The position numbers were made by a program, and so were the translations under genes. The notes under the pieces were generated by a model, which saw nothing but the letters and a program-made list of their open reading frames with translations, searched no databases and was not told the DNA's origin. Positions 595 to 30,950 of a DNA stretch of 32,000 bases are shown here, piece after piece; the first letter of the stretch is position 1, and every line of letters begins with the position of its first letter. Source of the DNA: an uncultured bacterium (lineage in GTDB: Bacteria > GCA-001730085); the NCBI GenBank assembly GCA_964565945.1, contig CAZMGY010000021.1, positions 180,001 to 212,000 of the forward strand, written 5' to 3'.

Positions 595-612
595 AATTGG
601 TCAAACAAGTGA

Positions 613-930
<318 letters not shown>

Positions 931-954
931 GCCAGATAAGGGAGTTCTGACGGC

Positions 955-1964: not shown

Positions 1965-1977
1965 TGAGGTTATAGTC

Positions 1978-3492: not shown

Positions 3493-3496
3493 TCGA

Positions 3497-4348
3497 ATGT
3501 CTCAAATAAAAGAAATTAAAAATCGAATCACCAGTATTAAAAAAACACAGCAAATCACACGTGCGATGAAAATGATTGCGGGTGTAAAGTTTCATAAAGC
3601 CGAAACGCTTTTGACGCAGGTGCGCCCCTTTGCTTTTATGATAAATGATGTTGTCAAAGATGTCTCTGAACGTAACTACGAAATGAGAAATCCTTTTTTT
3701 CGTAAAGTAGCGAAGACACACAATAAAGAACTTTTAGTGATTGTAACTGGAGATCGTGGTTTGTGTGGAAACTACAATAGTGCGGTTATTCGTAAAGTTC
3801 AAAAACTACTTAACGATAGTCGCTCATATGAGATGGTTTTAATTGGCAAAAAAGGACGTATTGTTTTTAATAAACCAGGAGAAGTGATTAAATTAGCGAT
3901 CGATAATCCGGGATCGGATGTGACCGATGAATATCTCAAAAATGTGGCTACACAATTGATAGAGCTTTATGCTCAGTATAATTCTGTTTCGATGATCTAT
4001 ACAGAGTTTGTGAATGCAGTTAAGCGCAATGTAATAGATAAACGAGTGCTTCCTATTTGTGACAAGTTCGAAAAAGGAAAACGTGCCGAACTTTTGTATG
4101 AGATGGATGAGGACGAGATTTTGGAGGATTTGGCCAACACCTATATCACATCGTGCTTACGTCATTCTTTAACAGAGTCTGCCGTGAGCGAGGAAAGTGC
4201 GCGGGTGACGGCAATGGATTCTGCCACCAACAATGCCAACGATATGATTCGTTCGTTAACCTTGGTGTATAACCGTGTTCGTCAAGCTGGAATTACAAAA
4301 GAGATTATAGAAATTTCGAGTGGAGCTGAAGCTTTTGCGAGTGCATAG
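3497..4348 (+). CDS. atpG: F0F1 ATP synthase subunit gamma
   Basis: 283 aa. N-terminal IKNRITSIKKTQQITRAMKMIA and C-terminal YNRVRQAGITKEIIEISSGAEA are the gamma coiled-coil signatures. Confidence 0.95.
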   Translation: MSQIKEIKNRITSIKKTQQITRAMKMIAGVKFHKAETLLTQVRPFAFMINDVVKDVSERNYEMRNPFFRKVAKTHNKELLVIVTGDRGLCGNYNSAVIRKVQKLLNDSRSYEMVLIGKKGRIVFNKPGEVIKLAIDNPGSDVTDEYLKNVATQLIELYAQYNSVSMIYTEFVNAVKRNVIDKRVLPICDKFEKGKRAELLYEMDEDEILEDLANTYITSCLRHSLTESAVSEESARVTAMDSATNNANDMIRSLTLVYNRVRQAGITKEIIEISSGAEAFASA

Positions 4349-4415
4349 CCTCAAAAAGTTTTAACTTATCGGACTGTTCGTACAAAAGATAAATGAAGGC
4401 AATCAAAAGGAGTAA

Positions 4416-5816
<1,401 letters not shown>

Positions 5817-5822
5817 GGGATT

Positions 5823-6104
5823 GTGTTTTGTATGGTTCAAAAACAAAAAAAGACCGTGGAGTTAAAGATCGCGGCTGTAAATCAAAGCTTATTCGAAGGT
5901 AATGTTGATTTTGTCATAGTTCCAGGTCTTGATGGAGATGTGGGGATCATGGCCGAGCATGCTCCGTTTTTAGCCCCTTTACGCAAAGGTCGCATTGATA
6001 TTGTGACTGGTGAAAACCCTAAACAAAGCCTGCAAGTGGAAGGGGGGGTCGTGGCGGTGGCAGATAATACTGTTCGTATATTAGTTAATAATATATCAGA
6101 ATAG
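5823..6104 (+). CDS. atpC: F0F1 ATP synthase subunit epsilon, short form (beta-sandwich only)
   Basis: Last gene of the operon. VPGLDGDVGIMAEHAPFLAPLRKGRIDI matches the epsilon N-terminal domain. The start is either GTG 5823 or, perhaps better, ATG 5832. The ORF ends after ~90 aa. Confidence 0.85.
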   Translation: MFCMVQKQKKTVELKIAAVNQSLFEGNVDFVIVPGLDGDVGIMAEHAPFLAPLRKGRIDIVTGENPKQSLQVEGGVVAVADNTVRILVNNISE

Positions 6105-6230
6105 ATTTGAATGAAAATTAAAGACCATCCACACATCCTCAAGCATCGCATTTTTCTAACATATAACGGTTGTACTAATGAGTAATCCCTCATCATTAGG
6201 TTAGAGCTTTTATCTGGATCAAAAGTTAAA

Positions 6231-6312
6231 TGGAGGGTGGTGGATTTGAACCACCGTAGGCTACGCCAGCAGATTTACAGTCTGCCCCCTTTGGCCACTC
6301 GGGTAACCCTCC
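6231..6312 (-). tRNA. tRNA-Tyr (anticodon GUA), class II with long variable arm; CCA not encoded
   Basis: Hand-folded from the reverse complement. Acceptor is GGAGGGT/ACCCTCC. Anticodon stem is GCAGA/TCTGC with loop CTGTAAA. The variable arm is 13 nt. T arm is GGTGG-TTCAAAT-CCACC. Confidence 0.9.
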
Positions 6313-6353
6313 AATAAGATAACAAATCAATGTGATTGATTTCGGGGCATTTA

Positions 6354-6429
6354 TGGAGCTGGCGATGGGACTCGAACCCGCAACATGTTGATTACAAATC
6401 AACTGCTCTACCAATTGAGCTACGCCAGC
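6354..6429 (-). tRNA. tRNA-Thr (anticodon UGU), CCA encoded
   Basis: Hand-folded. Acceptor is GCTGGCG/CGCCAGC. D arm is GCTC-AATTGGTA-GAGC. Anticodon stem is GTTGA/TCAAC with loop TTTGTAA. T arm is GCGGG-TTCGAGT-CCCAT, with one C-A mismatch and one G-U pair. Confidence 0.85.
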
Positions 6430-9255: not shown

Positions 9256-9305
9256 TTTGTGGGAAGTTGGGACTTTAAAGTTCTTCATGGTAAAATGTTG
9301 GTGTG

Positions 9306-10355
9306 ATGAAAGATTTATTTTTATGTGTCAACCTTGGTTCTCCCAAGCATTGGGATGTGGTTGCTGTTAAAGCTTATCTGTCCGAATTTTTGATGGATAA
9401 GCACGTGATTGACGTGCCCTGGTTACTGCGGTTCTTGTTGGTTAAAGGTCTTGTCGTGCCTTTTCGAAGTCCCAAGACATCGGAAGCTTATCGTGGAATC
9501 TGGATGGAGGAAGGTTCTCCGTTGGTTGTTTACACTGAACGAATGATGCGTGCATTGAAAGAGAAGGTGTCCTTTTCGGTTGAGTTGGCGATGACTTATG
9601 GAGATAACGATATTGCCACGTGTATTCAAAGGATGGTAGGTGAGCAGGGTTCTTCTGCGAGGCGCTTACATCTTTTGCCTCTATTTCCACACTACGCTAT
9701 GTCGACAACGCAAGCGGTTGTTGACCATGTTCACGCGAGTGTTCAGAAATATGCTCCACAGTGGGAGCTCCATGTTGTAAAGCTTTTTTTTGAGCATCAA
9801 GCGTATATCCTCGCTCTTAAGGCTCGTTTAGCTACTTTTGATGTGGCATCGTACGATCATATCGTCTTCAGTTATCACGGTTTGCCAGTTAGACATTTGC
9901 TCAAAACGGACCCTACTCAGTCGCACTGTATGAAAGTGCCTAATTGTTGTGAGGTTACAAGTGTAGCGCGAACGACCTGTTATCGTGCTCAAGTTGTGCA
10001 AACAATGCAATTACTAAGTCGAGAGCTAGAACTTAAGCCGACACAGTGGACGTTGGCTTTTCAGTCACGATTTGGCAAGGATACTTGGTTAATCCCCGAT
10101 ACAGAGGCGGTGTTAAAAAAACTCCCTCAACAAGGGGCGCGTCGTATTCTTGTGGTGAGTACAGCTTTTGTGGCGGATTGTCTTGAGACCTTGGAAGAAT
10201 TAGGTATGCGAGGTCGAAAATGTTTTAAGGATGCAGGAGGAGATGTTTTAGATATTGTACCCTGTCTGAATGACCATCCTGTTTGGATTGAAACTCTTGC
10301 GACTCTCATGGAGGAGCATATCCGTTCCGTCGAAGGTAAGTGTGATGATGCATAA
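9306..10355 (+). CDS. hemH: ferrochelatase
   Basis: Motifs seen: LCVNLGSP, EFLMD..VI, LPLFPHYAMSTT, SYHGLP, FQSRFG...WL.PDT, VADCLETLEE and CLNDHP. ATG 9306 is preferred over the listed GTG 9303. Confidence 0.92.
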   Translation: MKDLFLCVNLGSPKHWDVVAVKAYLSEFLMDKHVIDVPWLLRFLLVKGLVVPFRSPKTSEAYRGIWMEEGSPLVVYTERMMRALKEKVSFSVELAMTYGDNDIATCIQRMVGEQGSSARRLHLLPLFPHYAMSTTQAVVDHVHASVQKYAPQWELHVVKLFFEHQAYILALKARLATFDVASYDHIVFSYHGLPVRHLLKTDPTQSHCMKVPNCCEVTSVARTTCYRAQVVQTMQLLSRELELKPTQWTLAFQSRFGKDTWLIPDTEAVLKKLPQQGARRILVVSTAFVADCLETLEELGMRGRKCFKDAGGDVLDIVPCLNDHPVWIETLATLMEEHIRSVEGKCDDA

Positions 10356-11016
10356 ATTAGATGCTGTGGTTTACTGTTTAGAACATAATGTTGCTAAGTT
10401 TTTGCAAGGTATGGCGGCCAATCATTTAGATGCTCAAGAAAATGCGTTTGTTGATGTGTCTGGTCGTGTGATTGCAACCTTTTTTCAAAGATCCATTGAT
10501 GGAGATCATTGGCTGATTTGTGTGTCACGTTTTGCTGAAAATGCTGTGAATAAGCATATTGCCAAATATGCTCGCTTAACCAAGACGCGCTATGAAAAAT
10601 GGACGCATCAAGTTTATGTAGATTCCGATCTTGATAGAGCTTTGAAGCCTAATGAACATAGACTAACTAGTTCCTGGGGGATGCTTTTGATTACCGATAG
10701 AGATGATGTTGCTATTCATGATGAAGAAGCGACGCGGGCTTGGCGTGTTCTGAATCATATGCCGTGGCATGGCGTGGACTATCATCAAGAGATGCTTCTC
10801 AATATCCACGCCGAGCGCTATGTGGCTTTTGATAAAGGATGTTTTTTGGGACAAGAGATTTTATCGCGTGTCCATTTTAAGTCGAAGCCACCCAAAAAGT
10901 TGATTGTTGTCTATAAGGAAGACTGCTCGGAACAAGACCAATCTCTAATCACCTCTTTAGGACCGTGTCTCGAAACGGGTCAGCTTAAAGGGTTTTTGTT
11001 TGTAAATAATAGCTAG
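10345..11016 (+). CDS. YgfZ/GcvT-fold folate-binding protein (Fe-S cluster maintenance family)
   Basis: DKGCFLGQEILSRVHF matches the YgfZ signature KGC[YF]xGQE. The likely start is ATG 10345, which overlaps the hemH stop by 11 nt, rather than the listed 10270, which would overlap hemH by 86 nt. Confidence 0.65.
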   Translation: MMHKLDAVVYCLEHNVAKFLQGMAANHLDAQENAFVDVSGRVIATFFQRSIDGDHWLICVSRFAENAVNKHIAKYARLTKTRYEKWTHQVYVDSDLDRALKPNEHRLTSSWGMLLITDRDDVAIHDEEATRAWRVLNHMPWHGVDYHQEMLLNIHAERYVAFDKGCFLGQEILSRVHFKSKPPKKLIVVYKEDCSEQDQSLITSLGPCLETGQLKGFLFVNNS

Positions 11017-15386: not shown

Positions 15387-16286
15387 ATGGAACCACTATG
15401 TTTTTCAAGAGATCATATCTCCAGTTTTGATGGCTTGATGACTGCTAATCAAAAAGTACTTCAAATTATCGATAAAGCTAAACAAGTAGCGGTATCAGAT
15501 TTGCCAGTTCTGATAGTTGGAGAAAAAGGTACTGGTAAAATGAGTTTTGCTACATCCATCCATTCCCATAGCAGTTATAAGGAAGGTGCATTTCTTGTTC
15601 TGGAATCTAAAGATTTGGATGAAAACCTTTTGCAAGAGTCTATCAGTGATTGTGGTCAGGGTACTTGTGTGATTAAGGATGTTTCTTTGCTTAATTTGGC
15701 GAGTCAGAATGAATTGTTGATGTTATTATATCAGTCCATGCAAGACAGGGCGGTACGTTTTGTGGTTACCTCTGTGGTGCCCTTAGGTCACTTAGTCAAA
15801 ACAGGACAATTTTTGAAAAATTTGTTTATTTTGCTTAGCCAAGTAACCTTGGAGTTGCCTTCTTTGCATAAACGTCGTGATGATATTGCGTTGTTGATTC
15901 AATATTTCATTGGTGAATACAACGCCGAATTCAATCGACAAGTTGAGTGTGTGTCTAATGTGGCGTTGAGTTATTTGATTGGGTATGCCTGGCCGGGAAA
16001 TGTTGAAGAATTAAGGAGTGTTGTGAAAAAGGCGGTGGCTTTATCGGAACGGAATATTTTATGGTTGGAAGATATTTCCTTAAAAATTACCTTAACCAAC
16101 GAGGCCATGCTTAAAGGTGATGCGTCATCTCATTTGTCTCTTAAGTACCTGGAGAAAGAGCATATCGAAAAAGTATTACAAATTTTTCGTTGGAATAAAT
16201 CCAAGGCAGCTAAGGCGCTTAAAATATCGAGACCACGTCTCGATCGTAAAATTCAAGAGTACCAGCTCAAAAAAGATTTGTCTTAA
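15387..16286 (+). CDS. degenerate sigma-54-activator (bEBP)-like AAA+ / Fis-HTH transcriptional regulator, no receiver domain
   Basis: Walker A-like GEKGTGK, YAWPGNVEELRSVV (the bEBP sensor-II region) and a C-terminal Fis-type HTH (NKSKAAKALKISRPRLDRKI). The GAFTGA segment is absent and Walker B reads VIKDV. Confidence 0.8.
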   Translation: MEPLCFSRDHISSFDGLMTANQKVLQIIDKAKQVAVSDLPVLIVGEKGTGKMSFATSIHSHSSYKEGAFLVLESKDLDENLLQESISDCGQGTCVIKDVSLLNLASQNELLMLLYQSMQDRAVRFVVTSVVPLGHLVKTGQFLKNLFILLSQVTLELPSLHKRRDDIALLIQYFIGEYNAEFNRQVECVSNVALSYLIGYAWPGNVEELRSVVKKAVALSERNILWLEDISLKITLTNEAMLKGDASSHLSLKYLEKEHIEKVLQIFRWNKSKAAKALKISRPRLDRKIQEYQLKKDLS

Positions 16287-17413: not shown

Positions 17414-20400
17414 TTAAGACTCCATATAAATATCGATACGGTTAGTTTTTGTCGTCAATGCTTTGTTAAGAAGGGGTTGACTGATACGTAATCCACCCAT
17501 ACGATAGGGATTATTTTCTCTTTGAGTTTCGATATTTTGTTTATTAACAAGCACGCGTTGCAAACCACAGGCGTTCGCTTGAATATGAAAGTAGAAATCA
17601 ACATCGTGCGATCCAATTCGACGGCTTAATTTAACATCGTTGAGTTCTACTGGTAATACTGGATCAAGTACCAGGTCGTCAAAAGAAGGACGAATACCAA
17701 AAAAGTGTGAAATTACTTGATTATTAAAGATTCCAGGACCGCTTGAGTAAATGCGCCAGCCACCTTTAACTTGGGTTGCACCTGTTTTGAGTTTATGAAA
17801 GCCTTTTTTAGCCAAATAGCGATCTTTAAAGTTTCCATCTGAACTACTAAAGTAAGAGTTGCTTTGCCTTAAGATGGCATTAGGAACACTTTTGTTGATG
17901 GTGATAGGAATGATTTTGAGAATAGCTTTGTAGGCCTTATCGGACGCTCCAATTTTACACATGGCTTCGATATAGCGGATGTGTGCATGCACATACTGAA
18001 TACCAATTTCGCGACCCCAATTGGCTGCTTCATCGGCACGACGGAAATACAAGCGCGGCCCACCTTTGTAAGTCACCGGTTCATTCATAAGGTGGACACC
18101 ATCAGGGAAATCAAGGTGATCTTCGATGATTTTGAGGTGATCTTTCATTTGAGCTGGCTCAAAAAGCTCGGCAATCATACTGCGTGTCATAGGAAGGAGG
18201 CGATATTTGAGCCCCAACTTTTTATCGGATGGATGAAGCATATAGTCGATTGATGAGTTTTCTCTAAAGTAGATAAATCCACTCACCACACCATCTTTGA
18301 TAAGGTATTGGTTAAAGTCTTTCTTGATGTTGCTTCGTAGTTTGTTCAAACGATCGGCAAAGGCCTTCTCGCTGGTTTTGGCGACCACTTGCTCGAGCTG
18401 TCCGAATGATTGATAGGTTAGAGCAACACTCCAAGTGCTGACCATATTCGAGCACATACTTTCGTCGGCTGGTTGGAGCGTATCATCCCAATCGCCTTCT
18501 CCATAACAAGAGAGGTGTGTATTGGGGATAAATTTGGCCACAATGGCCTCAACGGTGCGTTTGGCATGATCTAAGATGCTAACGGGCTCTCTGGTCAATT
18601 CAAACGTGTTGTGGTCCATAAAGGGGACTTTTTCTTTAAGAAAGCTAAAGTCGTTACTAGCTTCAATGTAGCTGGCAAGAGCCCTCAAAGGCCAAATGAT
18701 AATGTCGCCATGACTTTCGGCATGTTGAATTTTGACATAGCGATCAAACATGAACCACTGAGGCCAGTCGGCTGTTGCAACATACTGTTGTTGAAAAACC
18801 ATTTTAAGAATTTCTTTAACTGGCTTGGTGTGTCCCATTGATAGCAAAAGCTCGAGAGGGCCTTGGCACACATCTCGCAATCCCCAAGCTCCACCACTAA
18901 ATTGTTCGAGTCCATGAGGTGTTGAGTAGTGAATCATCCCATTATGAAGATACCAAAAAACAATATCATTGATCTTAGATACATTTTCGTTATCAGCTAA
19001 CTCAATAGAAAAGTTTTGCCCTAAGGTTTGTGTCCAAAAAGACATGTTGTCTATATGATCTTGATCGAAATACGGTTGTGTTTTGGCCGAAGCTTGGGAA
19101 CGTTTTTTTGCTTTTGCGGGATCAAATAGGTCGCCAGTTATGCTAAGGCTAAAGTTTTGTGTGGCTTTGGTTTTAAATACAACATAAGGCCAGCTTTGAG
19201 ATTGACCGTCCAGATTAATGAATGCATCGTCGCCAATTGATTCGATTTGATCGGGTGTGGCCGATGTTACATAGAAGCTTGCGTCTGGATAAGTGTTTTT
19301 GAGCAAGCAGTCCGAACTGCATCTTGCTTGAACGGTAAAGGTTTCTGGATCAATGTCGACGTCAATGGTATTATCCCACTCATTGTTGCCCACGGTTAAG
19401 TTATTGGAAACTAAAAACGTATGATTTTTGTTGGATTGAACCTCCAAATGACAGATTGGTTCCTTGGGGGAAACCCATGCTTTGATGGTGATTACATCGT
19501 TGGCAAGTTTATAAATCCATCGTGTAAAGTCTGGAGCGACTTCGTAAGCAGAGGGCAGGTTTAGCAGCTGCCATTGGCCGTTGCGCTCGATAAAAATACG
19601 TTGACCACTTGATTTGAAAATATTGAGTGGAGAACGTGTGATTGATAGAAATTTATTGAAGGACGTGTTTCCTATGGTTACGTGGGAGTGAAATATGCCA
19701 TACATATAATTGGTGCTGCTAAGTACTTGATCATTGCCAGGGTTAAGATCTTGACCACTGCGGATGATATGTCCATGAGGACGTTCGCATAAAAGTTCTT
19801 TGCTCTTAAGCGAAACATAGTGATGCTGATCATAAAAGAAAGACAGGAGTCGGTTGTTGTTTTGTTCGCAGTGACGGTGTTCCCCTGGAAAAAAAGAGAC
19901 TAAATCCTGATCGTTAAGATTTTCTCCGTTGATTAAGCTAGGGCTGTTAAATAAAGAAAAAGATAACGGAGCTTGTTTTTCGCCATCAATAGCCACAAGA
20001 CGTTGCTGTGCTGCGAGGCACGCTTCTTGGATGGCTTGTGCGTCATTGTCACTGGTTGCTTCGGGATGATCAAATTCCAGGTGTGCAAAAAAGTTAAATG
20101 AGGAGGAGTCTTTGCTTTTGAGTGTCATAGCTTCGGTTTGAAGGCCGATAAAGGCAAACTCGTATTGTCTTTTTTCGCTGATAAGCTTCTCTTGGGTGAG
20201 TGCTTCGGGAACGCCAGTTTCTTTGTAAGATAAGCCATAAAAGTCAAATCCATCGGTAACATAGCCCACGGTTTTTTGTAGGCATCCTTGAATGAGCCAT
20301 GGATGACCTTGAGGAGGTGTTTTTTGATTTTGACGTGATGCAACAGTGTAGCCTTGAGCATTAGAAAAAATGTAATGATCAATGTATTGACAGCAGTAAG

Positions 20401-20893
20401 CTTCGTTAACTCGAACGGATCCCTCGGCGATAATGGCAATATCTTGACCATAAATCATATCAATCTCTTGGTCGGCAGAAGCTGTATTGGTGAGGTTAAC
20501 GTTCCAATTCCATGCATTGTGTGTTTCGTCTAGCACCAGTTGGCATTGGTAAGAAATACCTTCGAATTCACCCGTCCAACAGGCTTGATTATTGGTTGTT
20601 GATAGGGAGGTTTGAACGGTGGGACCAAGCAAGGGTGCAAAAGCATAACGGTTATCTTGTTTGACACGTATGTAGATGTTATTAATGTTGCCATCAATGG
20701 GAGTACCGATCACCTGGTTAATCATAATGTCGGCTGCCGAAAGCTGAAAAGCTCCGCCGTGGTTGAAATATTTGAATGATAATTGTTGGTTATTTGTGAC
20801 TTCAATAATGTCAAGTTGACTTCGATCTTTAAACGTAACCATTACAGAACAAACCCTTATTTTTCCTAAAATTACATCTTTGACAAGGATCAT
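17414..20893 (-). CDS. large GH94-like glycoside phosphorylase (cellobiose/beta-glucan phosphorylase-type (alpha/alpha)6 enzyme)
   Basis: 1159-aa intact ORF. GGAWGLRDVCQG, ESHGDIIIWPLRALASYIEASNDFSFL, GEGDWDDTLQP (compare the catalytic GDWND of GH94) and GIQYVHAHIRYIEAM resemble the GH94 catalytic barrel as I recall it. An alternative start is ATG 20842 (MVTFKD). Confidence 0.6.
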   Translation of the reverse strand: MILVKDVILGKIRVCSVMVTFKDRSQLDIIEVTNNQQLSFKYFNHGGAFQLSAADIMINQVIGTPIDGNINNIYIRVKQDNRYAFAPLLGPTVQTSLSTTNNQACWTGEFEGISYQCQLVLDETHNAWNWNVNLTNTASADQEIDMIYGQDIAIIAEGSVRVNEAYCCQYIDHYIFSNAQGYTVASRQNQKTPPQGHPWLIQGCLQKTVGYVTDGFDFYGLSYKETGVPEALTQEKLISEKRQYEFAFIGLQTEAMTLKSKDSSSFNFFAHLEFDHPEATSDNDAQAIQEACLAAQQRLVAIDGEKQAPLSFSLFNSPSLINGENLNDQDLVSFFPGEHRHCEQNNNRLLSFFYDQHHYVSLKSKELLCERPHGHIIRSGQDLNPGNDQVLSSTNYMYGIFHSHVTIGNTSFNKFLSITRSPLNIFKSSGQRIFIERNGQWQLLNLPSAYEVAPDFTRWIYKLANDVITIKAWVSPKEPICHLEVQSNKNHTFLVSNNLTVGNNEWDNTIDVDIDPETFTVQARCSSDCLLKNTYPDASFYVTSATPDQIESIGDDAFINLDGQSQSWPYVVFKTKATQNFSLSITGDLFDPAKAKKRSQASAKTQPYFDQDHIDNMSFWTQTLGQNFSIELADNENVSKINDIVFWYLHNGMIHYSTPHGLEQFSGGAWGLRDVCQGPLELLLSMGHTKPVKEILKMVFQQQYVATADWPQWFMFDRYVKIQHAESHGDIIIWPLRALASYIEASNDFSFLKEKVPFMDHNTFELTREPVSILDHAKRTVEAIVAKFIPNTHLSCYGEGDWDDTLQPADESMCSNMVSTWSVALTYQSFGQLEQVVAKTSEKAFADRLNKLRSNIKKDFNQYLIKDGVVSGFIYFRENSSIDYMLHPSDKKLGLKYRLLPMTRSMIAELFEPAQMKDHLKIIEDHLDFPDGVHLMNEPVTYKGGPRLYFRRADEAANWGREIGIQYVHAHIRYIEAMCKIGASDKAYKAILKIIPITINKSVPNAILRQSNSYFSSSDGNFKDRYLAKKGFHKLKTGATQVKGGWRIYSSGPGIFNNQVISHFFGIRPSFDDLVLDPVLPVELNDVKLSRRIGSHDVDFYFHIQANACGLQRVLVNKQNIETQRENNPYRMGGLRISQPLLNKALTTKTNRIDIYMES

Positions 20894-23460: not shown

Positions 23461-23483
23461 CAAGCGCAGTGTGCTTGCTTTTT
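23461..23483 (+). terminator. weak hairpin plus T-tract downstream of the nitrilase-family gene
   Basis: CAAGC-gcagtgt-GCTTG followed by CTTTTTG. The stem is only 5 bp, so this is tentative. Confidence 0.2.
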
Positions 23484-23575
23484 GTATTATCCAATAAGTA
23501 TACTTTACAAAGCATAAAGTGTAGATCTTATAGCAAACTATGGAATGTGTAGAATAAAAACTATAGAGTGGAAGG

Positions 23576-23604
23576 TTTACAAAATAATATATACTTTATA
23601 TAAT
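23576..23604 (+). promoter_or_regulatory. sigma-70-type promoter candidate for the merR-like / secretin cassette
   Basis: TTTACA, a 17-nt spacer, then TATAAT. It lies 60 nt upstream of the TTG start at 23664, in a 380-bp AT-rich non-coding region. Confidence 0.45.
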
Positions 23605-23663
23605 CTGTAACATTAATGGTGTGTCGAACGTTTGGGGTTGAGGGGTTCGGATCGAGGAGCTGA

Positions 23664-23930
23664 TTGTTGGAAAAATTGTACCGTATTGGGGAAATTATGG
23701 AATACAGTGGTTTGTCTCGGCAAACTGTGCATTTATATACGCAGATGCGCCTGATTCAAGAAAAGAAACGAACCCATTCTGGCTACCGGCTCTATGATGA
23801 ATACGTCTTTAAACAAATAGAAATCATCAAAGCCTTACAGGCCTTAGGTTATACCCTTTTAGAAATCAAAGATATCTGTGATCAGGGAAAAGTTAAGGAA
23901 GCATTCAAGAAACATGGGGTGAAGTTATGA
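23664..23930 (+). CDS. small MerR-family HTH regulator (DNA-binding domain plus short helix, no effector domain)
   Basis: YRIGEIMEYSGLSRQTVHLYTQMRLI....HSGYRLYDE....IEIIKALQALGYTLLEIKDI is the MerR winged-HTH pattern. The TTG start follows GAGGAG. The stop overlaps the next gene (ATGA). Confidence 0.8.
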   Translation: MLEKLYRIGEIMEYSGLSRQTVHLYTQMRLIQEKKRTHSGYRLYDEYVFKQIEIIKALQALGYTLLEIKDICDQGKVKEAFKKHGVKL

Positions 23931-25822
23931 GTAAACAAGATCTTCGTGGCCAAGTTTTGCTTAATGCAGGAGTGATCAATCAAGCGCAATTGGATAAAGC
24001 TCTAGAAATTCAAAAAGATAGTATGCAACGTATTGGGCATGTTTTGGTGGATGCTGGATTTATTTCGGAGGAGGAAATGTTATTGGCGATGGAGCGTCAG
24101 AGCGGCATCCCTTGGATCAAATTAAGACTATCGGATATTCAAGGCAGTGCCATTGCTTTGATGTCTCAAGATATTGCTCAACGTTATGCGTGTTGTCCCG
24201 TTAAAGAAGAAGGAGAGATCTTGACGGTAGCTATTTCGGATCCTTTATCGTACGAAGATATCGACGACATCCGCTTGGTTGTGAAAAAAGAGATCGAGCT
24301 TATTCTTGTTTCGGAGTCCAGTGTTTTAAGAGCGTTGAATCAATTTTACGAAATTGATCCGAAAGAGGTTTTTGCGACGATGACGCCCAAACCTCATGAG
24401 AGTGAAATAGTTGAGGTCGAAGAGGTTCTTGAGGATGTATCGCGAGAAGATAATATTGTACCAGTTGAGCTTGCGCCGTCTTCCGAAGTTGCTCCAGAGA
24501 TATTTTCCGAAGAACCTGTGGAGGAAGAGATTTCCGAAGTGGTGGTTGAACCTGAGCTTGTGTCTATTCCCGAAAGTGAATCCGAAACGGATACGGCACA
24601 AAACCTAATAGACGAGAGTGAAGAACCTGTTGCCACTGTGCCCGAGGTTAAAGAAACGCTTGTCGAAGAGCCCCTTGTTTGGCTGGACAAAATGGAGGAG
24701 CAGGATTTTTGGGATCTTGTTCTTGATGAGGTTGATTTAGCGAGTGATATTTATTTAGAAAATGACCCTGAAAATCTTAAAGTTCGCTATCGTGCGGATG
24801 GCGTGATTGTCAAAGAACAACTGATAAGCAAAAAGTCGCCCGTGTATCAAAAATATTGGGAGGTTTTGTTGAAATGGAATGCTCAGTCGATGCAAGGGCC
24901 TATTCAGTCTTTGTTTGCCAATGTTGGTCGTTTGCAAAGGCGAGTCAAGTTGACCTTTCTTTCGGATCGTTATGGACAGGATGTGCATTTGAAATGTTTA
25001 TTTTACGAAGAACCTGTGACGAGTTTTGATCACTTGGGACTGAATGAGTTTTGCCATCAGCAATTGGAAGCATTCTTGATGCGAAAAAAAGGTGTTCTCC
25101 TTTTGTTGGGCGATGCCGATTCGGGTTTGAGTACGACGCTTAGGGTGTTGGGACGATCTTTGTCGCAGCAAAAACGAAAGGTTCTTAGTTTTGAGCGTTT
25201 TATCGAATATGATGTTCCGGATATTTACCAATTTGAATCAGAGTCGTTTGAACTAGGGTATATCTATCAAGACATGAGTAAAATTTTCGATATTAATCCC
25301 GATGTTTTTATCTTTGCTAATTTGCCTCAGCCAGCCTGGGCACATTTTTTGCTTGAGGCTTCTTTTTCTGGGAAATTAGTTGTTTTAGGAATGAATGCAA
25401 AAAACCTTAATAGTGTTTTTGTCAAAATTGAAGAATTAGGCGTGCACAAAAACATTTTTATTAACGAGATTGATTGCGTGCTTCGCCAAAGTTTATTTCG
25501 TCTTAATTGTCCTGGATGTGGGGATATTGATGAAAAATCTTCCGAGCATGATATGAAGTATTTACTAGGGGAAGGTCTTTTCTATAAAGGGACTGGCTGT
25601 GAGTTATGTTATGCAACGGGTTATCAAGGGCGTCGAGCTATTTTTGATGTCTTGGAGGTTGATGAAGCTGTCAAAGAGTTGATGAAAAATGATATCACCG
25701 AAAAAGATATTAGTAAGATGCGTGCGGAGCAAGGTGGCGTTAGCTTGGCACAAGAGGCTGTCAGAATGATACAGGAACGGTACACGTCAATAGAGGAAGT
25801 TCAGAGAATTGGATTGGTTTAA
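23927..25822 (+). CDS. GspE/PilB-family protein with an N-terminal MshEN (T2SSE_N) domain and a catalytically degenerate ATPase core
   Basis: Tandem MshEN motifs occupy aa 6-58, followed by an acidic linker. ASDIYLENDPENLKVRYRADGV matches the N2 domain. The Walker A position reads GDADSGLS, Walker B reads PDVFIFANLPQ, and the His box reads SGKLVVLGMNAKN. The CPGC...CELC zinc motif is retained. Confidence 0.85.
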   Translation: MSKQDLRGQVLLNAGVINQAQLDKALEIQKDSMQRIGHVLVDAGFISEEEMLLAMERQSGIPWIKLRLSDIQGSAIALMSQDIAQRYACCPVKEEGEILTVAISDPLSYEDIDDIRLVVKKEIELILVSESSVLRALNQFYEIDPKEVFATMTPKPHESEIVEVEEVLEDVSREDNIVPVELAPSSEVAPEIFSEEPVEEEISEVVVEPELVSIPESESETDTAQNLIDESEEPVATVPEVKETLVEEPLVWLDKMEEQDFWDLVLDEVDLASDIYLENDPENLKVRYRADGVIVKEQLISKKSPVYQKYWEVLLKWNAQSMQGPIQSLFANVGRLQRRVKLTFLSDRYGQDVHLKCLFYEEPVTSFDHLGLNEFCHQQLEAFLMRKKGVLLLLGDADSGLSTTLRVLGRSLSQQKRKVLSFERFIEYDVPDIYQFESESFELGYIYQDMSKIFDINPDVFIFANLPQPAWAHFLLEASFSGKLVVLGMNAKNLNSVFVKIEELGVHKNIFINEIDCVLRQSLFRLNCPGCGDIDEKSSEHDMKYLLGEGLFYKGTGCELCYATGYQGRRAIFDVLEVDEAVKELMKNDITEKDISKMRAEQGGVSLAQEAVRMIQERYTSIEEVQRIGLV

Positions 25823-27305
25823 AAAGCTAAAACAGAAGCTTAAGTCGTTTAAGAAGATAGGTGTTTTCACTTATGTGGGATTGGATGTTTTAGAAACATC
25901 GTTCCCTCAGTATGTGGTTCTTCATAAGACGAAGAAAACATTCTCTTTGTACGATTGTGGGCGCATTTTTAATCGAGACGAAGTGTTGGGGAAGATTAAA
26001 GATCTTAATGTTAAAGTTGCTGTTTCAATCCCTCGAGATAAGGTGATTGTCCGTGTGATGGATATTTCTTATCAGGAATCGCAGAGTTTAGTTGAAGTGA
26101 TTATGGAGCATGCTGAACAGGCGGTTCCCTTTGCTTTAGGGGAATTGTTCTGGAAATATTTTATTATTAAGAAATCCAAAAATAAAGCGGTTGTTATTTT
26201 TTGTGCAGTGACCAAAGAAAAATCGAATCAGTATGCCCAAGAGCTTAAAGGCATGGGGCTTAAAAATGTAGTGATGACGGCATCCACCTTGTCTTATGTG
26301 AATACCTTCCTTTTTAATCATTGTGATGAGCTTTCGAACAAAAGTTACTTATTGGTTGATATTGGTATGCGGCAATTAGAGTTGTGCATTATCGAAGACG
26401 GTGTTCTTGTTTTGACGCGAAGCTTGAACCTCGGCATCGAATATATGTTGCGTATGCTTATGGATAAGTTCGATATTGATTTTCCTACAGCTCAAAAAGT
26501 TGTGTTTGGAGCACCTAAAAACAAAGAAGAACCTGAGGAGGAAACGCTTTTGAATGAAACGGTTGTACGTGAAGTTTTTCATGTTTGGACCGAGCGTGTC
26601 TTGCGCGAAATAGAGTTAGCGAAAAGGTTTTATGCTAGCAAATACGCCAAAAAAATCGACAGCTTAGTCATGAGCGGTTGCCCGATTCAATATGGTTACG
26701 ATTTGGATTATATTGCGAATGTGATGAGCAAGCACTTTGACCTAGAAACGATGCTGTTAGACCCTCTGAAAAATGCTATTTTGGATCACCAATCCCTTGT
26801 GCATCAAGAGGATTTGCAACAGATCAATAGCTTGGCGATTCCTATGGGCTTGGCGCTTCAGTTGGTTAAGCAAGCTCCTCTGATGATCAATTTGAATGGG
26901 CAAGACAAAGATATTCGTGAAGAGAGTTCTTATTGGTCACATATGGCGGGACAAAAAAACAAAGTTTTGGCCATAGGTGTTGGCATTATTTTGTGTGTGT
27001 TGGCAGCCCAGAGTTATTTTATTAAAAAATCTCAGATCAAGAAAAATAAAGTTCTCAAATCGGAATATGTCTTGAGTCAAAAACAAGCAGTGACCTTTAA
27101 AAAGAAAATAAAAAAGCAAAAAGAAAAATTGGGACGTATTCATATTCCTCAAAGTCTTTTTTTAGATGTTCATACCTATTTTTCTCAAAAGAAGCAGGAG
27201 GAGTCCACACTAAGGTATGAGAAGTATTTGTTTCAATCTGGGAAGGGGATTGTTTATGCCAAGGATGCCGAGGGGCAAGAAGTGATTGAAGAGGTGACGT
27301 TATGA
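25809..27305 (+). CDS. PilM-like actin-fold protein fused to a TM plus PilN-like tail (GspL-like architecture)
   Basis: The N-terminal ~370 aa show the PilM pattern (VGLDV..., AVPFALGELFWKY, LLVDIGMRQLELCII, SLVMSGCP). A single TM helix (VLAIGVGIILCVLAAQSYFI) and a ~100-aa Lys-rich tail follow. The TTG start overlaps the upstream gene by 14 nt. Confidence 0.65.
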   Translation: MDWFKKLKQKLKSFKKIGVFTYVGLDVLETSFPQYVVLHKTKKTFSLYDCGRIFNRDEVLGKIKDLNVKVAVSIPRDKVIVRVMDISYQESQSLVEVIMEHAEQAVPFALGELFWKYFIIKKSKNKAVVIFCAVTKEKSNQYAQELKGMGLKNVVMTASTLSYVNTFLFNHCDELSNKSYLLVDIGMRQLELCIIEDGVLVLTRSLNLGIEYMLRMLMDKFDIDFPTAQKVVFGAPKNKEEPEEETLLNETVVREVFHVWTERVLREIELAKRFYASKYAKKIDSLVMSGCPIQYGYDLDYIANVMSKHFDLETMLLDPLKNAILDHQSLVHQEDLQQINSLAIPMGLALQLVKQAPLMINLNGQDKDIREESSYWSHMAGQKNKVLAIGVGIILCVLAAQSYFIKKSQIKKNKVLKSEYVLSQKQAVTFKKKIKKQKEKLGRIHIPQSLFLDVHTYFSQKKQEESTLRYEKYLFQSGKGIVYAKDAEGQEVIEEVTL

Positions 27306-27844
27306 AAAAGTTACAAGAACTTTGGCAACATTTCAACTTCTTTTCCTTCAATCATCGAAGTGTCCTCATTGTGGGAGGGGGTTTTCTTATTTTGCTTATC
27401 GCTATTTTATGGATGAAAAGTCAAAGCCGAGCGTATTGCAATGAGAATGCCTTGTTAGAGCATCAAATTCATAAGTTTTGGGTCGAATATCAAAAGTTCC
27501 AGCAGAAAAATCACAAAGAGATAATGGCGATCAAAGAGATTGGCGTTCTCAAAAATGATAAGCAGATTGCCAAAGAGGGTAAGCGTCTTCGAGAAAAAAT
27601 GATTAAAATAACTGAGCAAGCTATTTGGAGTGTGGATACTTTGCCTGCCAAAAAAGATAAGGGGATTATCAAACTAAGTTTTTTGCTCAAGTTTTCAAAG
27701 CCAACTTTGGCTAAAATTATGCAGGTGATTTATGTTTTAGAACAAGATGAAGAGTTGTTTTTTATTGACGAAATTGAGCTCACTAAGGGTGGAGCAGGTG
27801 TTAGTGCTAAACTCCTTTTAAAGAGGCTATACATTGCGAGGTAA
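27302..27844 (+). CDS. PilO/GspM-like bitopic inner-membrane protein
   Basis: 180 aa with a short cytoplasmic N-terminus, one TM helix (VLIVGGGFLILLIAILWM), a coiled-coil-like stretch and a small C-terminal domain. ATGA overlap with the upstream gene. The assignment is from architecture and position only. Confidence 0.4.
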   Translation: MKKLQELWQHFNFFSFNHRSVLIVGGGFLILLIAILWMKSQSRAYCNENALLEHQIHKFWVEYQKFQQKNHKEIMAIKEIGVLKNDKQIAKEGKRLREKMIKITEQAIWSVDTLPAKKDKGIIKLSFLLKFSKPTLAKIMQVIYVLEQDEELFFIDEIELTKGGAGVSAKLLLKRLYIAR

Positions 27845-27847
27845 ATT

Positions 27848-28348
27848 GTGAAATTTGTTGCTTTGAGAATGATTTTTGTTTTATTGGGACTTTTGGTGAC
27901 AGGTCAACTCTATGCCGAGGCCAAAGCTTTTCAAAAAACGCCTTTGGACGAGTGGGATGTGTACAGGGGGGCGTTTCAGCTAGATATTTTTAGAGAGCCA
28001 CGTATCGAGACCCAGTCTGTGAATAAGGGAGGAGAGATAGTGGTTTCGTTGGATCAAAATCTTGGAATAGAGGCTGATGAGATGATGCAATCTCTTCAAG
28101 ATATGGTGAGTTTGCCCCCCCCCGAAGAATGTATTGATATCGATTGGGCTTTGTACGATATCACAATCACGGGTGTCGGGTTTGTGAGTGGTCGTCCTAA
28201 AATCTTTTTTGAAAACAGGGCGACGGGAAAAAGTTATTATCTTGCCCAAGGGCAAGAAGAAGATGGAATTCGTGTTGAACAAATCAGGCGATTGGCTATT
28301 ATTTTTAGAATTCAAGGGCAAAAGCTTAAGATTGATCGCCAATTTTAG
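27848..28348 (+). CDS. PilP / GspC-HR-like periplasmic protein
   Basis: Signal peptide MKFVALRMIFVLLGLLVTGQLYAEA. The C-terminal ITITGVGFVSGRPKIFFENRATGKSYYLAQGQEEDGIRVEQIRRLAIIF fits the PilP/GspC homology-region beta-sandwich pattern. Lies immediately upstream of the secretin. Confidence 0.45.
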   Translation: MKFVALRMIFVLLGLLVTGQLYAEAKAFQKTPLDEWDVYRGAFQLDIFREPRIETQSVNKGGEIVVSLDQNLGIEADEMMQSLQDMVSLPPPEECIDIDWALYDITITGVGFVSGRPKIFFENRATGKSYYLAQGQEEDGIRVEQIRRLAIIFRIQGQKLKIDRQF

Positions 28349-28380
28349 TATAATAGTTTCGTGATGGAGGAAGTGTGTGC

Positions 28381-30867
28381 ATGAAATTAGTAATTCAGTT
28401 TTTTTTAATGACTTTGTTGGCTATAGGGCTGCAGGTTGATCTTGGGGCTCAGGAAATGGCACAAGGCCCGATGGTGTCTATGGATTTTCATGAAGTTGAC
28501 GTGGATAGTGTTCTTCATTTTTTGGGAGAGGCTTCGGGTTTAACAATTGTTAAAGACCCTACATTAACGGGGACGATAAGTATTACCACTTTTGGGAAGA
28601 CGTCGGTGGGACAAGCAATTAACATTTTGAATAGTGCTTTGAGTGTCAAAGGTTTTACGTTGGTCAAAACAGGGGAGGTTCTTAAAATAGTTCCCCTAGA
28701 AGGCGTTTCTAAAACCAATGTGAACGTATTTAAAGATTATAAGATGCCTGCGAATGAACCTAAAGATGACACCGTTGTGACCAAAATGATTTCTTTGCAA
28801 TATGCCAAAGCTAAAGATGTTGTTACGGCTTTGCAGCCGTTGGTGGGGCGATTTGGCTCGGCGATTGCTTACGAAAGAACAAATACGGTTATTATTACCG
28901 ACGCTTCGGCCAATATTGCACGCTTAACCGACTTGCTTGAAGATTTGGATCGTCAAGTGACCTCTTTGGTGACACGTTCTTACAAGGTTCAGCATGCTGG
29001 GCTAAACAAGCTGAAGGACTTACTTAAACAAATTACTGAGCAGTATGAACACGAATTGGGGCACTTTGCAATCAATTCGGATGAAAGAACGCGAACCCTA
29101 TTTGTGACCACCCTTCTGGATAATTTTGACATGGTTGAAAAGCTGATTTATCAGCTTGATCAAGGAATACCTCAGGTGCTTATCGAAATGGAAGTAGTTA
29201 GAATTCCTTACCGCAACATTGATGTTGATATACGACACCGTCTTTTTGAGTCATCAAAATATGCACATGATAAAAAGGTGATGAACGAGGGTGATCAAAT
29301 TTTTAATTGGAGATACAGTATTGATGCCGATGCCGATAAAATGTTTTCTTGGTATGGGCTATCTGAAGATAAGGGTAAAGAAGAATTTACCTACAAGTTG
29401 AATGTGTTGTATGGACCCGAATATTTTGATGTGTATGCCTTACCGATGGTGACTGTGGCTGAAGGGAGCCAAACCGAGGTATCTATAGGGCACGAAAATT
29501 ATTTTTACCGCTTGGCTCCAATGACGCTCGACTTTAAAATTATTCCTCATTTGAATGAAGATGAAACAGTTACTTTAGAAATGTTCCAACATGTTCGAGG
29601 AGATTGGCTCAAAACGCAAGATGCCTATGCACGTTTGGTGGTTGCCAAGGATCAAACTGTTGTTTTAGGGGGGCTTAATGAGCTGCGTTTACCTCAAGAC
29701 CGTCAGGTGGCCTCGGCGTATCGCGAAGATACCCACTATGTAAGCAATGAATTTTTGATTTTTTTAACTCCGCATATCATTTGGGATCCAGCTACGTTTA
29801 AAAAGAAAATTGAGAAACAGGCCAAGGAAGCGGCCCTTAAAGCCGAAAAACCCGATTTAAATCTTTTGTTTCCTGGTGGTTTTATGGAATTTGATTTGCC
29901 CAAAGTGTCTGCGATGACCAAACAGAAACATCCTACTCAAGATGATTTTGTAAGCCCAAATCCTGGGGTGGAGTTAAAGGTTGATGAGGGCTCACATGGG
30001 CCACCAACCCAAAGCAAATCCTATAAAATTTGGTGGAAGATGCAAGATTTTGTACAATTGCCCGAGGAGCTTGTTGACATTAAAGAGGCAATGTCGGATC
30101 GCAACTTTGTTGACAGTGAGGTGAGAAGCCGTTTGCGCAAGGATGTTGTTCAGTTTATGGAGAATGTTCGTGCCGAAGAAACCTTGGGCATGGAGCCCGA
30201 TGTGAGCTTGAAAACCAAAGTGACACCTGTTCCCGAAAAAGAGAATTATGTTCTTAAAGAAACACTCTATCGTCGAGGTATTTCTTTTTACAAAAAACAA
30301 CAGTATAAAGGGGCGATTCGTGAATTTGCTCCGATTATGAGTATCGATCCAAACTATAAGAATGTGCAAAGATATATGCAGTTATCACAACAGCGTTACA
30401 AAGAACAGTTATCGGATTTGGGAGAGCGCAATAATATCGAAAAGGCCATTAAAGACAAGGCCTTGAAAGAATTGACCCAAACATACACGACGATGGATCA
30501 AAAAATCAAACAGGTGTCTCAGGCAGAGTCGATGGGAGCTTACACCAAGAGTGACAAGTTGTTTAATTATATTGGAGAGCCTAAGGATATTCCTTCCGAT
30601 CGCATTGAAAAGTCATTGACCGATCACTTAGCGGGAGAAATCTTGGAAGTTAGTGCTGCTCAACCCCTTGTGGTGATTAATCTTGGTTCGATTCAGAATG
30701 TTCATCCAGGGATGGCTTTCAAAGTGTATCGGGATCAGGAGTTTATCGGTAAAGTTCGTGTGTCCGATGTTGGAGAGCATGTTTCTGGAGCCGAGGTGGT
30801 TTCGACCAAAACTCCGAAAACAACTTTTCGTTTTGGAGATAAGGTGGTACAGGCCCTTGTAGCATAG
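28381..30867 (+). CDS. GspD-like secretin with a divergent short pore domain and a ~360-aa C-terminal extension
   Basis: Signal peptide, then an N0 domain (MDFHEVDVDSVLHFLGEASGLTIV...GEVLKIVP), then two N1-type repeats (NTVIITDASANIARLTDLLEDLD; RTLFVTTLLDNFDMVEKLIYQLD). The secretin core begins at QVLIEMEVVRI and ends at NEFLIFLTPHII. ATG 28381 (GGAGGA, 7-nt spacing) is preferred over GTG 28375. Confidence 0.8.
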   Translation: MKLVIQFFLMTLLAIGLQVDLGAQEMAQGPMVSMDFHEVDVDSVLHFLGEASGLTIVKDPTLTGTISITTFGKTSVGQAINILNSALSVKGFTLVKTGEVLKIVPLEGVSKTNVNVFKDYKMPANEPKDDTVVTKMISLQYAKAKDVVTALQPLVGRFGSAIAYERTNTVIITDASANIARLTDLLEDLDRQVTSLVTRSYKVQHAGLNKLKDLLKQITEQYEHELGHFAINSDERTRTLFVTTLLDNFDMVEKLIYQLDQGIPQVLIEMEVVRIPYRNIDVDIRHRLFESSKYAHDKKVMNEGDQIFNWRYSIDADADKMFSWYGLSEDKGKEEFTYKLNVLYGPEYFDVYALPMVTVAEGSQTEVSIGHENYFYRLAPMTLDFKIIPHLNEDETVTLEMFQHVRGDWLKTQDAYARLVVAKDQTVVLGGLNELRLPQDRQVASAYREDTHYVSNEFLIFLTPHIIWDPATFKKKIEKQAKEAALKAEKPDLNLLFPGGFMEFDLPKVSAMTKQKHPTQDDFVSPNPGVELKVDEGSHGPPTQSKSYKIWWKMQDFVQLPEELVDIKEAMSDRNFVDSEVRSRLRKDVVQFMENVRAEETLGMEPDVSLKTKVTPVPEKENYVLKETLYRRGISFYKKQQYKGAIREFAPIMSIDPNYKNVQRYMQLSQQRYKEQLSDLGERNNIEKAIKDKALKELTQTYTTMDQKIKQVSQAESMGAYTKSDKLFNYIGEPKDIPSDRIEKSLTDHLAGEILEVSAAQPLVVINLGSIQNVHPGMAFKVYRDQEFIGKVRVSDVGEHVSGAEVVSTKTPKTTFRFGDKVVQALVA

Positions 30868-30950
30868 AGTAAGTATTGATGTCTTTACTAGAATTATTTA
30901 ATATGGTATGCTTAATTAATTTGTTTTTTTGTAAGTTAAAGGATAAAAAC

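Follow-up and report, generated by a model that had tools for sequence, protein, structure and literature searches.

A conserved secretin cassette with a predicted non-catalytic PilB/GspE homolog in an uncultured bacterium

The described system that comes closest in its working to the gene cassette analyzed here is the GspC-GspD/GspE-GspL-GspM assembly of the type II secretion system (T2SS), in which binding of the N1 domain of the GspE ATPase to GspL is established. The cassette consists of six genes in a 32,000-nucleotide (nt) stretch of DNA from an uncultured bacterium (the window; contig CAZMGY010000021.1, positions 180,001 to 212,000 of the forward strand) and encodes, in order, a MerR-like protein, a homolog of the PilB/GspE ATPases, a PilM-like protein fused to a transmembrane (TM) segment, two small envelope proteins and a secretin. 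It also shares its gene logic (M-(N)-O-P-secretin, and no gene for a pilin, motor or platform protein) with the PilMNOPQ/HofMNOPQ sets of type IV pilus (T4P) systems; the E. coli hofMNOPQ alignment and secretin operon likewise lacks all three. Within the superphylum Planctomycetes-Verrucomicrobia-Chlamydiae (PVC), the nearest annotated analog is the 'pili-like' cluster Amuc_1098-Amuc_1102 of Akkermansia muciniphila, which encodes small envelope proteins along with a membrane protein resembling PilM and a secretin bearing tetratricopeptide repeats (TPR), and in which no ATPase, pilin or platform gene is described. The window cassette encodes only an envelope-spanning frame and its regulator, and is an unusual variant of a well-known machine rather than a wholly new one. 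Its PilB/GspE homolog is predicted to be non-catalytic, in a degenerate form that is conserved across divergent lineages.

An original prediction made for this stretch had assigned the genes to the MerR, GspE/PilB, PilM and secretin families, and profile matches to MerR_1, to MshEN and T2SSE, to PilM_2, and to GspD N0 and Secretin_N agreed with this. The PilB/GspE homolog has the GspE/PilB domain order and a clear T2SSE domain (119.4 bits; Pfam cut-off 24.9), and it scores far under the equivalog cut-offs for PilB (176.7 versus 675.65) and GspE (166.6 versus 630.25). Its catalytic motifs were read by residue-level alignment with solved PilB and PilF structures. The alignment showed motifs that are destroyed rather than intact; the predicted loss of the Walker A lysine, the Walker B glutamate and the His box was borne out, and the Asp box was gone as well. 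Where active enzymes have the Walker A sequence GPTGSGKT, this protein has GDADSGLS, without the catalytic lysine; the Asp box EDPVE has become ERFIE, Walker B GEIRD has become ANLPQ (MVGEIRD versus FIFANLPQ), and the His box GHLVLSTLHTND has become GKLVVLGMNAKN. The orthologs carry GDKYSGIS, GDANSGVS and GGSDMGVS at the Walker A position, and the degenerate motifs are themselves conserved among them (GD..SG[LIV]STT and GMN[AV]K). The tetracysteine zinc motif CPGC...CELC is kept in every ortholog and in a more distant relative, P0083. From these substitutions the protein, referred to here as the pseudo-ATPase, is predicted to be non-catalytic and unable to bind or hydrolyze ATP.

The predicted c-di-GMP-binding MshEN (T2SSE_N) domain has been kept and passes the NCBIfam c-di-GMP-motif model NF053729 (55.3 bits; cut-off 38), with the motifs LRGQVLLNAGVINQAQLDKALEIQ and RIGHVLVDAGFISEEEMLLAMERQ in tandem. 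The MshEN consensus, exemplified by MshE and PilF, consists of two 24-residue motifs, (R/K/L)LGxx[LVI][LVI]xxG[LVIF][LVI]xxxxLxxxLxxQ, with a 5-residue spacer (PMC11731258). The arrangement in the pseudo-ATPase is the same, with a spacer of 5 residues and a motif II that departs from the consensus only by conservative changes (I, M, M). No other part of the protein is as well conserved as the MshEN domain: identity to the orthologs is 52-58% there, compared with 37-38% in the C-terminal domain, 18-27% in N2 and 20-28% in the linker. An N-terminal signature, [DE]LRGQ, was confined to this clade among more than 200 retrieved homologs and distinguishes the domain from those of MshE and PilF. The pseudo-ATPase probably senses c-di-GMP, as its domain content suggests, but whereas the ligand in MshE and PilF regulates an active motor, here there would be no motor activity to regulate.

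Analysis of gene neighborhoods showed that the cassette core (five genes, or the share of them on the contig) is also present in four other divergent lineages, with protein identities of 36-68% and in genomic contexts that partly differ. Contig L007 encodes a partial pseudo-ATPase, the PilM fusion, proteins of 169 and 162 amino acids (aa) and an 825-aa secretin, followed by ftsH. L089 encodes the pseudo-ATPase, proteins of 486, 172 and 146 aa and a 964-aa secretin, with tatA downstream and no merR. The order in L090 is CN-hydrolase, merR, pseudo-ATPase and PilM fusion, and in L008/L099/L100 it is sigma-54 activator, SOGP, murJ, merR, pseudo-ATPase and PilM fusion. In the place of merR, L089 has an open reading frame (ORF; positions 3-6131) for a protein of at least 2042 aa that contains cadherin, Big_12 and RTX repeats; it lies on the same strand and 54 nt upstream of the cassette. 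This giant adhesin-like protein could be a cargo, or the adjacency could be coincidental.

Between the window and L007, the proportion of nonsynonymous differences (pN) was 0.21 in the pseudo-ATPase gene, 0.20 in the secretin gene and 0.24 in the ftsH region encoding the N-terminus, with synonymous sites saturated (pS approximately 0.75). Because its pN matches those of the secretin and the FtsH N-terminus, the pseudo-ATPase is as constrained as its neighbors, and its inactivity appears to be maintained by selection. Conserved dead motifs under purifying selection support the core of the original prediction, namely that the operon is no ordinary one for a pilus or T2SS and that its ATPase homolog has been repurposed. 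They also bear on the possibility that a T2SS/T4P operon has been decaying in a reduced genome and has left the cassette as a functionless relic. Such a relic would be consistent with the lost catalytic motifs, the weakly scoring secretin domain and the small genome of the lineage. However, every ORF is intact in five lineages, pN is far under the saturated pS, the degenerate motifs are themselves conserved, and so is a cis element upstream of the cassette. A relic is thus highly improbable, being effectively refuted by the conservation data.

The family is extremely rare in sequence databases. An exhaustive HMMER search of 1.84 billion protein representatives returned 27,618 PilB-like proteins, only three of which (P0065, P0066 and P0105) had the degenerate signature, and the family formed approximately four 50%-identity clusters among the same representatives. 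No members were found when GTDB species genomes and JGI metagenomes were scanned by pattern with the pseudo-ATPase and PilM-fusion alignments. A word-indexed homolog search with the pseudo-ATPase (its cluster is represented by a 47-aa fragment) returned no family members; the same kind of search with the PilM fusion returned only two relatives, and when the alignments of the two small proteins were concatenated, the protein from the window was the sole match. Full-text literature searches found no paper describing this combination of genes, which the original prediction had not recognized as a described system either.

A sister cassette was found around P0083, on an 82.7-kb contig from JGI sample 3300072015. 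P0083 is 30% identical to the pseudo-ATPase overall and 42% identical over MshEN, and shares the DLRGQ signature. It keeps the Walker A lysine, but none of the Asp box, Walker B and His box survives. The genes around it encode, in order, MerR (84 aa), the ATPase-like protein (546 aa), T2SSG (158 aa), PilM (413 aa), a 280-aa protein, a secretin (826 aa), a 160-aa protein and a PilZ protein (128 aa). A GspG-type pseudopilin gene thus sits between the ATPase-like and PilM-like genes, and the PilZ protein is a second link to c-di-GMP. This content indicates that the wider clade consists of MerR-headed, platform-less, T2SS-like cassettes that ancestrally included a GspG-type pseudopilin, and the P0083 cassette may be an evolutionary intermediate form of the window cassette. 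Two other, partially degenerate PilB-like proteins were rejected as further members: P0082 belongs to an ordinary cluster of pilB, pilC and pilin genes, and P0127 is encoded by an orphan gene without secretion-system neighbors. Among the best 150 PilB-like matches, 24 had at least one degenerate catalytic motif by strict regular expression (P0116, P0127, P0155, P0192, P0205 and others), and non-catalytic PilB/GspE paralogs may be a wider, unstudied phenomenon.

The gene downstream of the pseudo-ATPase gene encodes the PilM fusion. Its PilM-like domain matched PilM_2 (E = 3.8e-20, 72.5 bits; cut-off 27) and, among known structures, the Myxococcus PilM in 3jc8 (E = 3.4e-19), and it scored under the TIGR01175 cut-off (82.3 versus 133). 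Comparison with the cytoplasmic domain of E. coli GspL gave an hhalign probability of 71.8% (E = 3.5e-5), and the Pfam T2SSL match had an E-value of 0.061. The joining of a PilM-like domain to a membrane segment points to a GspL-like architecture and is a difference from the PilMNOPQ/HofMNOPQ sets, as is the predicted dead PilB homolog translationally coupled upstream. The overlap between the pseudo-ATPase and PilM-fusion genes is 14 nt in the window, L007, L089 and L090, and 20 nt on one contig of the fifth lineage.

This coupling bears on the question of whether the pseudo-ATPase belongs to the complex at all. The cassette might instead belong to a normal T4P or T2SS as a standard operon of the pilMNOPQ/hofMNOPQ type, with the pseudo-ATPase merely co-operonic and acting as a free c-di-GMP signaling protein, as M. 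xanthus PilB can do toward exopolysaccharide production. A signaling role has been reported for PilB (PMC5544727), hofMNOPQ is a precedent for alignment and secretin operons that lie apart from pilin and motor genes, and orphan degenerate PilB-like genes such as P0127 exist elsewhere. Nonetheless, the overlap and the gene order have been kept at 36-40% protein identity, and the secretin and connector are themselves atypical. The dead domain also keeps its zinc motif and a conserved C-terminus, so a structural role in the complex is favored, and a free signaling protein in an ordinary operon is an unlikely explanation.

The two small proteins occupy the M-like and C-like positions expected from the T2SS. 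Profile searches of both found no family match above threshold, and profile searches against the PDB gave chance-level matches only. By hhalign, neither the 180-aa nor the 166-aa protein gave any signal against E. coli GspM, HofN, HofO or HofP; the sole faint match was that of the 166-aa protein to the GspC HR region (P = 0.04), and two of three orthologs had a weak T2SSB match (E = 0.0024). Single-sequence AlphaFold2 models had mean pLDDT values of 61.5 (180 aa) and 40.4 (166 aa), with the small C-terminal domains under 50. The P-like protein also differs from PilP-type proteins of the PilMNOPQ/HofMNOPQ sets in having no lipobox cysteine. The original labels for this part of the cassette (a GspL-like PilMN fusion, a PilO/GspM-like protein and a PilP/GspC-like protein) therefore hold for the fusion of PilM to a TM segment, whereas those of the small proteins have no above-threshold family match behind them.

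The secretin resembles GspD more than PilQ. A three-sequence profile was collinear, with deletions, with residues 29-602 of E. coli GspD (hhalign probability 99.0%, E = 5.7e-18), covering N0, N1, N3 and the barrel, and N0 and Secretin_N were above their Pfam thresholds. The match to the PilQ model was 92.7 against a cut-off of 284.35, and a profile search found no AMIN domain. There are also departures from GspD: an N2-sized segment is absent, the barrel is compacted, and an extension of approximately 360 aa with TPR and beta structure replaces the S-domain. The original prediction had noted a long extra C-terminal region in an atypical secretin, and this region proved to be real and conserved among the orthologs, with two TPR motifs in L089. 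In Amuc_1098, by comparison, the TPR is N-terminal and the secretin domain is canonical, while in the cassette protein the TPR is C-terminal and the barrel divergent. The Akkermansia cluster differs further in that no pseudo-ATPase or MerR is described there, and the cassette PilM fusion is a weak match to the Amuc_1101 family (NF045709; 81.7 bits, cut-off 650).

No prepilin leader, T2SSF or prepilin peptidase was found in the window, and GspF, the pseudopilins GspG-K and GspO, all parts of the T2SS, were absent from the cassette, from approximately 47 kb around it and from every lineage contig. The claim in the original prediction that all requirements for building or powering a pilus are lacking therefore stands for the operon and for the DNA inspected (approximately 47 kb around the cassette, and approximately 94 kb across the lineages), but it does not carry over to a pilus-less machine. 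Since hofMNOPQ-type operons lack them too, missing pilin, platform and motor genes are weak evidence for such a machine, and because these operons are normal and the sister cassette carries a GspG-type pseudopilin, the absence of a pilus from the whole genome is not established.

It is possible, though doubtful, that the cassette encodes an autonomous motor-less and pilus-less complex in a genome without pilins, platform, prepilin peptidase or active PilB/GspE, which would act as a static or ligand-gated conduit or anchor set by c-di-GMP on the pseudo-ATPase. Every ortholog has dead catalytic residues, and in the sister clade they are largely dead as well; approximately 94 kb of lineage DNA yielded no pilin or PilC; neither the sister cassette nor the contigs of the five lineages carry a platform gene; the secretin has lost its signature motif and gained its tail; and the genome of the closest relative is small (1.9 Mb). 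Set against this, a GspG-type pseudopilin is kept in the sister cassette, the parts that couple secretin to platform (N0-N3, connector and L-like protein) are all retained, operons of this type normally depend on genes elsewhere, and the absence data cover approximately 94 kb of lineage DNA rather than a whole genome. That there are no pilins, platform or active secretion ATPase at all, and that the secretin complex is self-sufficient and set by c-di-GMP on the pseudo-ATPase, is rather unlikely. The 'c-di-GMP-gated conduit' of the original prediction is putative. If the motor-less reading were true, the type IV filament superfamily would have given rise to a new functional class, in which the complex serves as a ligand-gated conduit or anchor of the envelope and not as a filament machine.

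The explanation favored here, at about even confidence, is that the cassette encodes a lineage-specific scaffold derived from a T2SS/T4P machine, in which the pseudo-ATPase is a resident non-catalytic subunit, probably sensing c-di-GMP and docked on the PilM/GspL-like domain, with filament parts, platform and energy supplied in trans. The pseudo-ATPase's N-terminal domain would sit on the cytoplasmic PilM/GspL-like domain, as GspE sits on GspL, and the protein would serve as a structural, c-di-GMP-responsive subunit and not as a motor. The 180-aa (GspM/PilO-like) and 166-aa (GspC/PilP-like) proteins would bridge the platform to the N0 ring of the secretin. As the operon cannot alone power filament assembly, the (pseudo)pilins, platform protein and active ATPase must, if the machine is dynamic, come from elsewhere in the genome. 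Supply in trans is slightly more likely than a fully motor-less complex. A conceptual precedent, and only that, is TadZ/CpaE of Tad pili, a non-catalytic protein of ATPase fold whose Walker A is degenerate and which acts as a docking and localization hub in a type IV filament machine; TadZ/CpaE have a ParA/MinD fold, not a PilB/GspE fold, and no MshEN domain.

Several observations weigh against this scaffold. MshEN motif I departs at positions 1-2, with L-R-G where the consensus, and thus MshE and PilF, have (R/K/L)-L-G; its other positions fit. Neither the window nor its flanks showed a diguanylate cyclase gene. The Pfam Secretin domain scored 16 bits against a cut-off of 27.5, and the barrel lacks VPxLGDIPxxGxLF, the most conserved motif of the family and one present in the T2SS secretin; with this motif lost and the score under threshold, the secretin may not gate a filament at all. 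The 180-aa protein would be PilO/GspM-like by position and topology only, and the 166-aa protein is possibly a secretin connector of the GspC-HR/GspB/PilP type. No GspF/PilC, pilin, active ATPase or class III leader was found in approximately 94 kb of lineage DNA, which fits the motor-less reading too.

A MerR-like gene at the head of the cassette is a further difference from the T2SS. Its product has a winged helix-turn-helix (MerR_1, E = 4.9e-12, 46.2 bits; cut-off 21.6) and, at only 88 aa, no effector-binding C-terminal domain. Orthologs lie directly upstream of the pseudo-ATPase gene in L090 and L099/L100, and none is found there in L089. The window gene is preceded by a GAGGAG ribosome-binding site and by a 380-bp spacer, which the original prediction had described as AT-rich; the length was correct, but the region is only mildly AT-rich (38.1% GC versus 41.6% for the whole window). 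The predicted TTTACA-17-TATAAT promoter is present, and within it is a second TATACTTTA half-site (23590-23598). Comparison of the leader with Rfam gave no match at E ≤ 1, and a riboswitch or other structured RNA was rejected on that ground.

Upstream of this promoter-like site is the 26-nt element AAGTATACTTTACAAAGCATAAAGTG, 24 nt of which are the same in L090, though the proteins of the window and L090 share just 37-40% identity. Its dyad, ACTTTA-N7-TAAAGT, occurs approximately 160 nt upstream of merR in three lineages: the window, L090 (884-909) and L099/L100 (7690-7715 and 1019-1037). It was not found in the remaining 91 loci compared, and the window has one copy where none is expected by chance. 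The MerR-like gene and the conserved dyad travel with the cassette, and the dyad is a strong candidate for the operator of the short MerR-like protein, through which that protein would control transcription. MerR-family factors are expected to have a C-terminal dimerization helix and an effector-binding domain, with an operator dyad in a promoter spacer of 19-20 bp; here the spacing between dyad and -10 varies across lineages, and the dyad overlaps a -35-like hexamer. Of the MerR-type control originally predicted, what stands is that merR and the dyad occur together in the window, L090 and L099/L100; control itself is putative. The short protein and the dyad form a testable regulator-operator pair in an almost unstudied PVC lineage.

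Table 1. Positions in the window of the cassette genes, their domains and the upstream elements
Feature	Position	Strand	Description	Basis
Terminator-like hairpin, then T-run	23461-23477	+	Ends upstream CN-hydrolase transcription unit	
cis element AAGTATACTTTACAAAGCATAAAGTG	23496-23521	+	26 nt, dyad ACTTTA-N7-TAAAGT; overlaps TTTACA -35-like hexamer	
Sigma-70-type promoter-like site	23576-23604	+	TTTACA-17-TATAAT; 11/12 consensus positions, best of the region	
MerR-like gene	23664-23930	+	88 aa	ORF call
Pseudo-ATPase gene	23927-25822	+	631 aa	ORF call
Pseudo-ATPase domains	23927-25822	+	MshEN/N1E aa 1-145; acidic linker aa 146-270; N2; C-terminal domain	Profiles, alignment
MshEN (T2SSE_N) domain	23927-24361	+	Motifs LRGQVLLNAGVINQAQLDKALEIQ and RIGHVLVDAGFISEEEMLLAMERQ in tandem	Profile match
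PilM-TM fusion gene	25809-27305	+	498 aa	ORF call
PilM-TM fusion domains	25809-27305	+	PilM-like actin-fold domain aa 62-351; one TM helix aa 384-406; periplasmic tail of ~92 aa	Profiles, TM prediction
Small bitopic protein gene	27302-27844	+	180 aa	ORF call
Small bitopic protein topology	27302-27844	+	N-terminal TM helix aa ~20-38; long helix; small C-terminal domain	Topology
Second small protein gene	27848-28348	+	166 aa	ORF call
Second small protein topology	27848-28348	+	N-terminal signal/anchor, no lipobox; conserved C-terminal beta region FFENxxTxKxYYLAxG	Topology, orthologs
Secretin gene	28375-30867	+	830 aa	ORF call
GspD-type secretin part	28375-29784	+	Signal peptide; N0, N1 and N3-like domains; compact beta-barrel core	Profiles, hhalign
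C-terminal extension of secretin	29785-30867	+	~360 aa; LLFPGGFMEF motif; one TPR aa 629-660; FlgT_C-like beta domain aa ~754-826	Ortholog alignment

The six genes were confirmed as coupled and on the same strand, with the predicted coordinates and overlaps (Table 1). Adjoining genes overlap by ATGA at 23927 and 27302 and by 14 nt at 25809; 3 nt separate the fourth and fifth genes (before 27848), and 26 nt precede the secretin gene, or 32 nt with the ATG at 28381 taken as its start. Family assignment also recovered the expected boundaries, murJ and a CN-hydrolase (nitrilase-family) gene upstream and ftsH downstream. The 83-nt gap from the secretin stop to ftsH (30868-30950) has no terminator-like site, and ftsH also follows the secretin gene in L007, so read-through co-transcription into ftsH is possible. 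With flanking DNA added, the wider order is gyrBA-ndk-mnmG-parAB-atp operon, then the cassette, then ftsH-folP-dacA-pdxJ-acpS. GC skew is uniformly positive (approximately +0.2) over the window (1-32000) and L092, where genes are co-oriented; the strong positive skew is attributed to an origin-proximal, leading-strand location near gyrBA, mnmG and parAB.

Other features of the window were recorded as well. The F-type ATP synthase operon (L091/L092 7968-11010; window 22-1964) has two c-subunit genes (83 aa and 100 aa), one on either side of the a-subunit gene, an unusual duplication, with an AtpI-like gene and a 123-aa ORF upstream. Genes for tRNA-Tyr(GTA) and tRNA-Thr(TGT) (6230-6429, minus strand) lie between the atp operon and an 827-aa ORF without a Pfam family (6772-9255). 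A 248-aa ORF, also without a Pfam family (10270-11016), shares 86 nt with the end of hemH (9303-10355), and the start of the ORF may therefore be wrongly assigned. A sigma-54 activator of approximately 300 aa (15387-16286; L099 137-1066) has AAA+ and HTH_8 domains and no receiver or sensor domain, and in two lineages it is syntenic with murJ and a gene for a 1159-aa SOGP/GH94-type glycoside phosphorylase (17414-20893).

Among 185,579 species genomes, the closest AtpD to the one encoded in this region was that of 'PVC group bacterium (ex Bugula neritina AB1)', at 85% identity; all others reached 72% at most. The species from which the window comes is not itself one of the GTDB representatives. 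The genome of this organism, AB1_div, is 1.9 Mb in size, came from the bryozoan Bugula and was placed in candidate division NPL-UPA2, basal in the PVC superphylum (PMC5041132). The source of the window thus appears to be an uncultured PVC-superphylum bacterium with AB1_div as its closest genome, in an almost unstudied PVC group associated with marine invertebrates.

Current understanding treats secretins and the alignment complexes of the inner membrane as accessory parts of filament machines driven by ATP, and in this lineage the cognate ATPase appears to have been frozen in a non-catalytic state under strong selection. The cassette would therefore be a natural experiment on the non-motor roles of PilB/GspE proteins, such as docking, signaling and gating. 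If the source genomes prove to be without pilins and platform proteins, this would show that a secretin scaffold can take on a new role with no filament involved.

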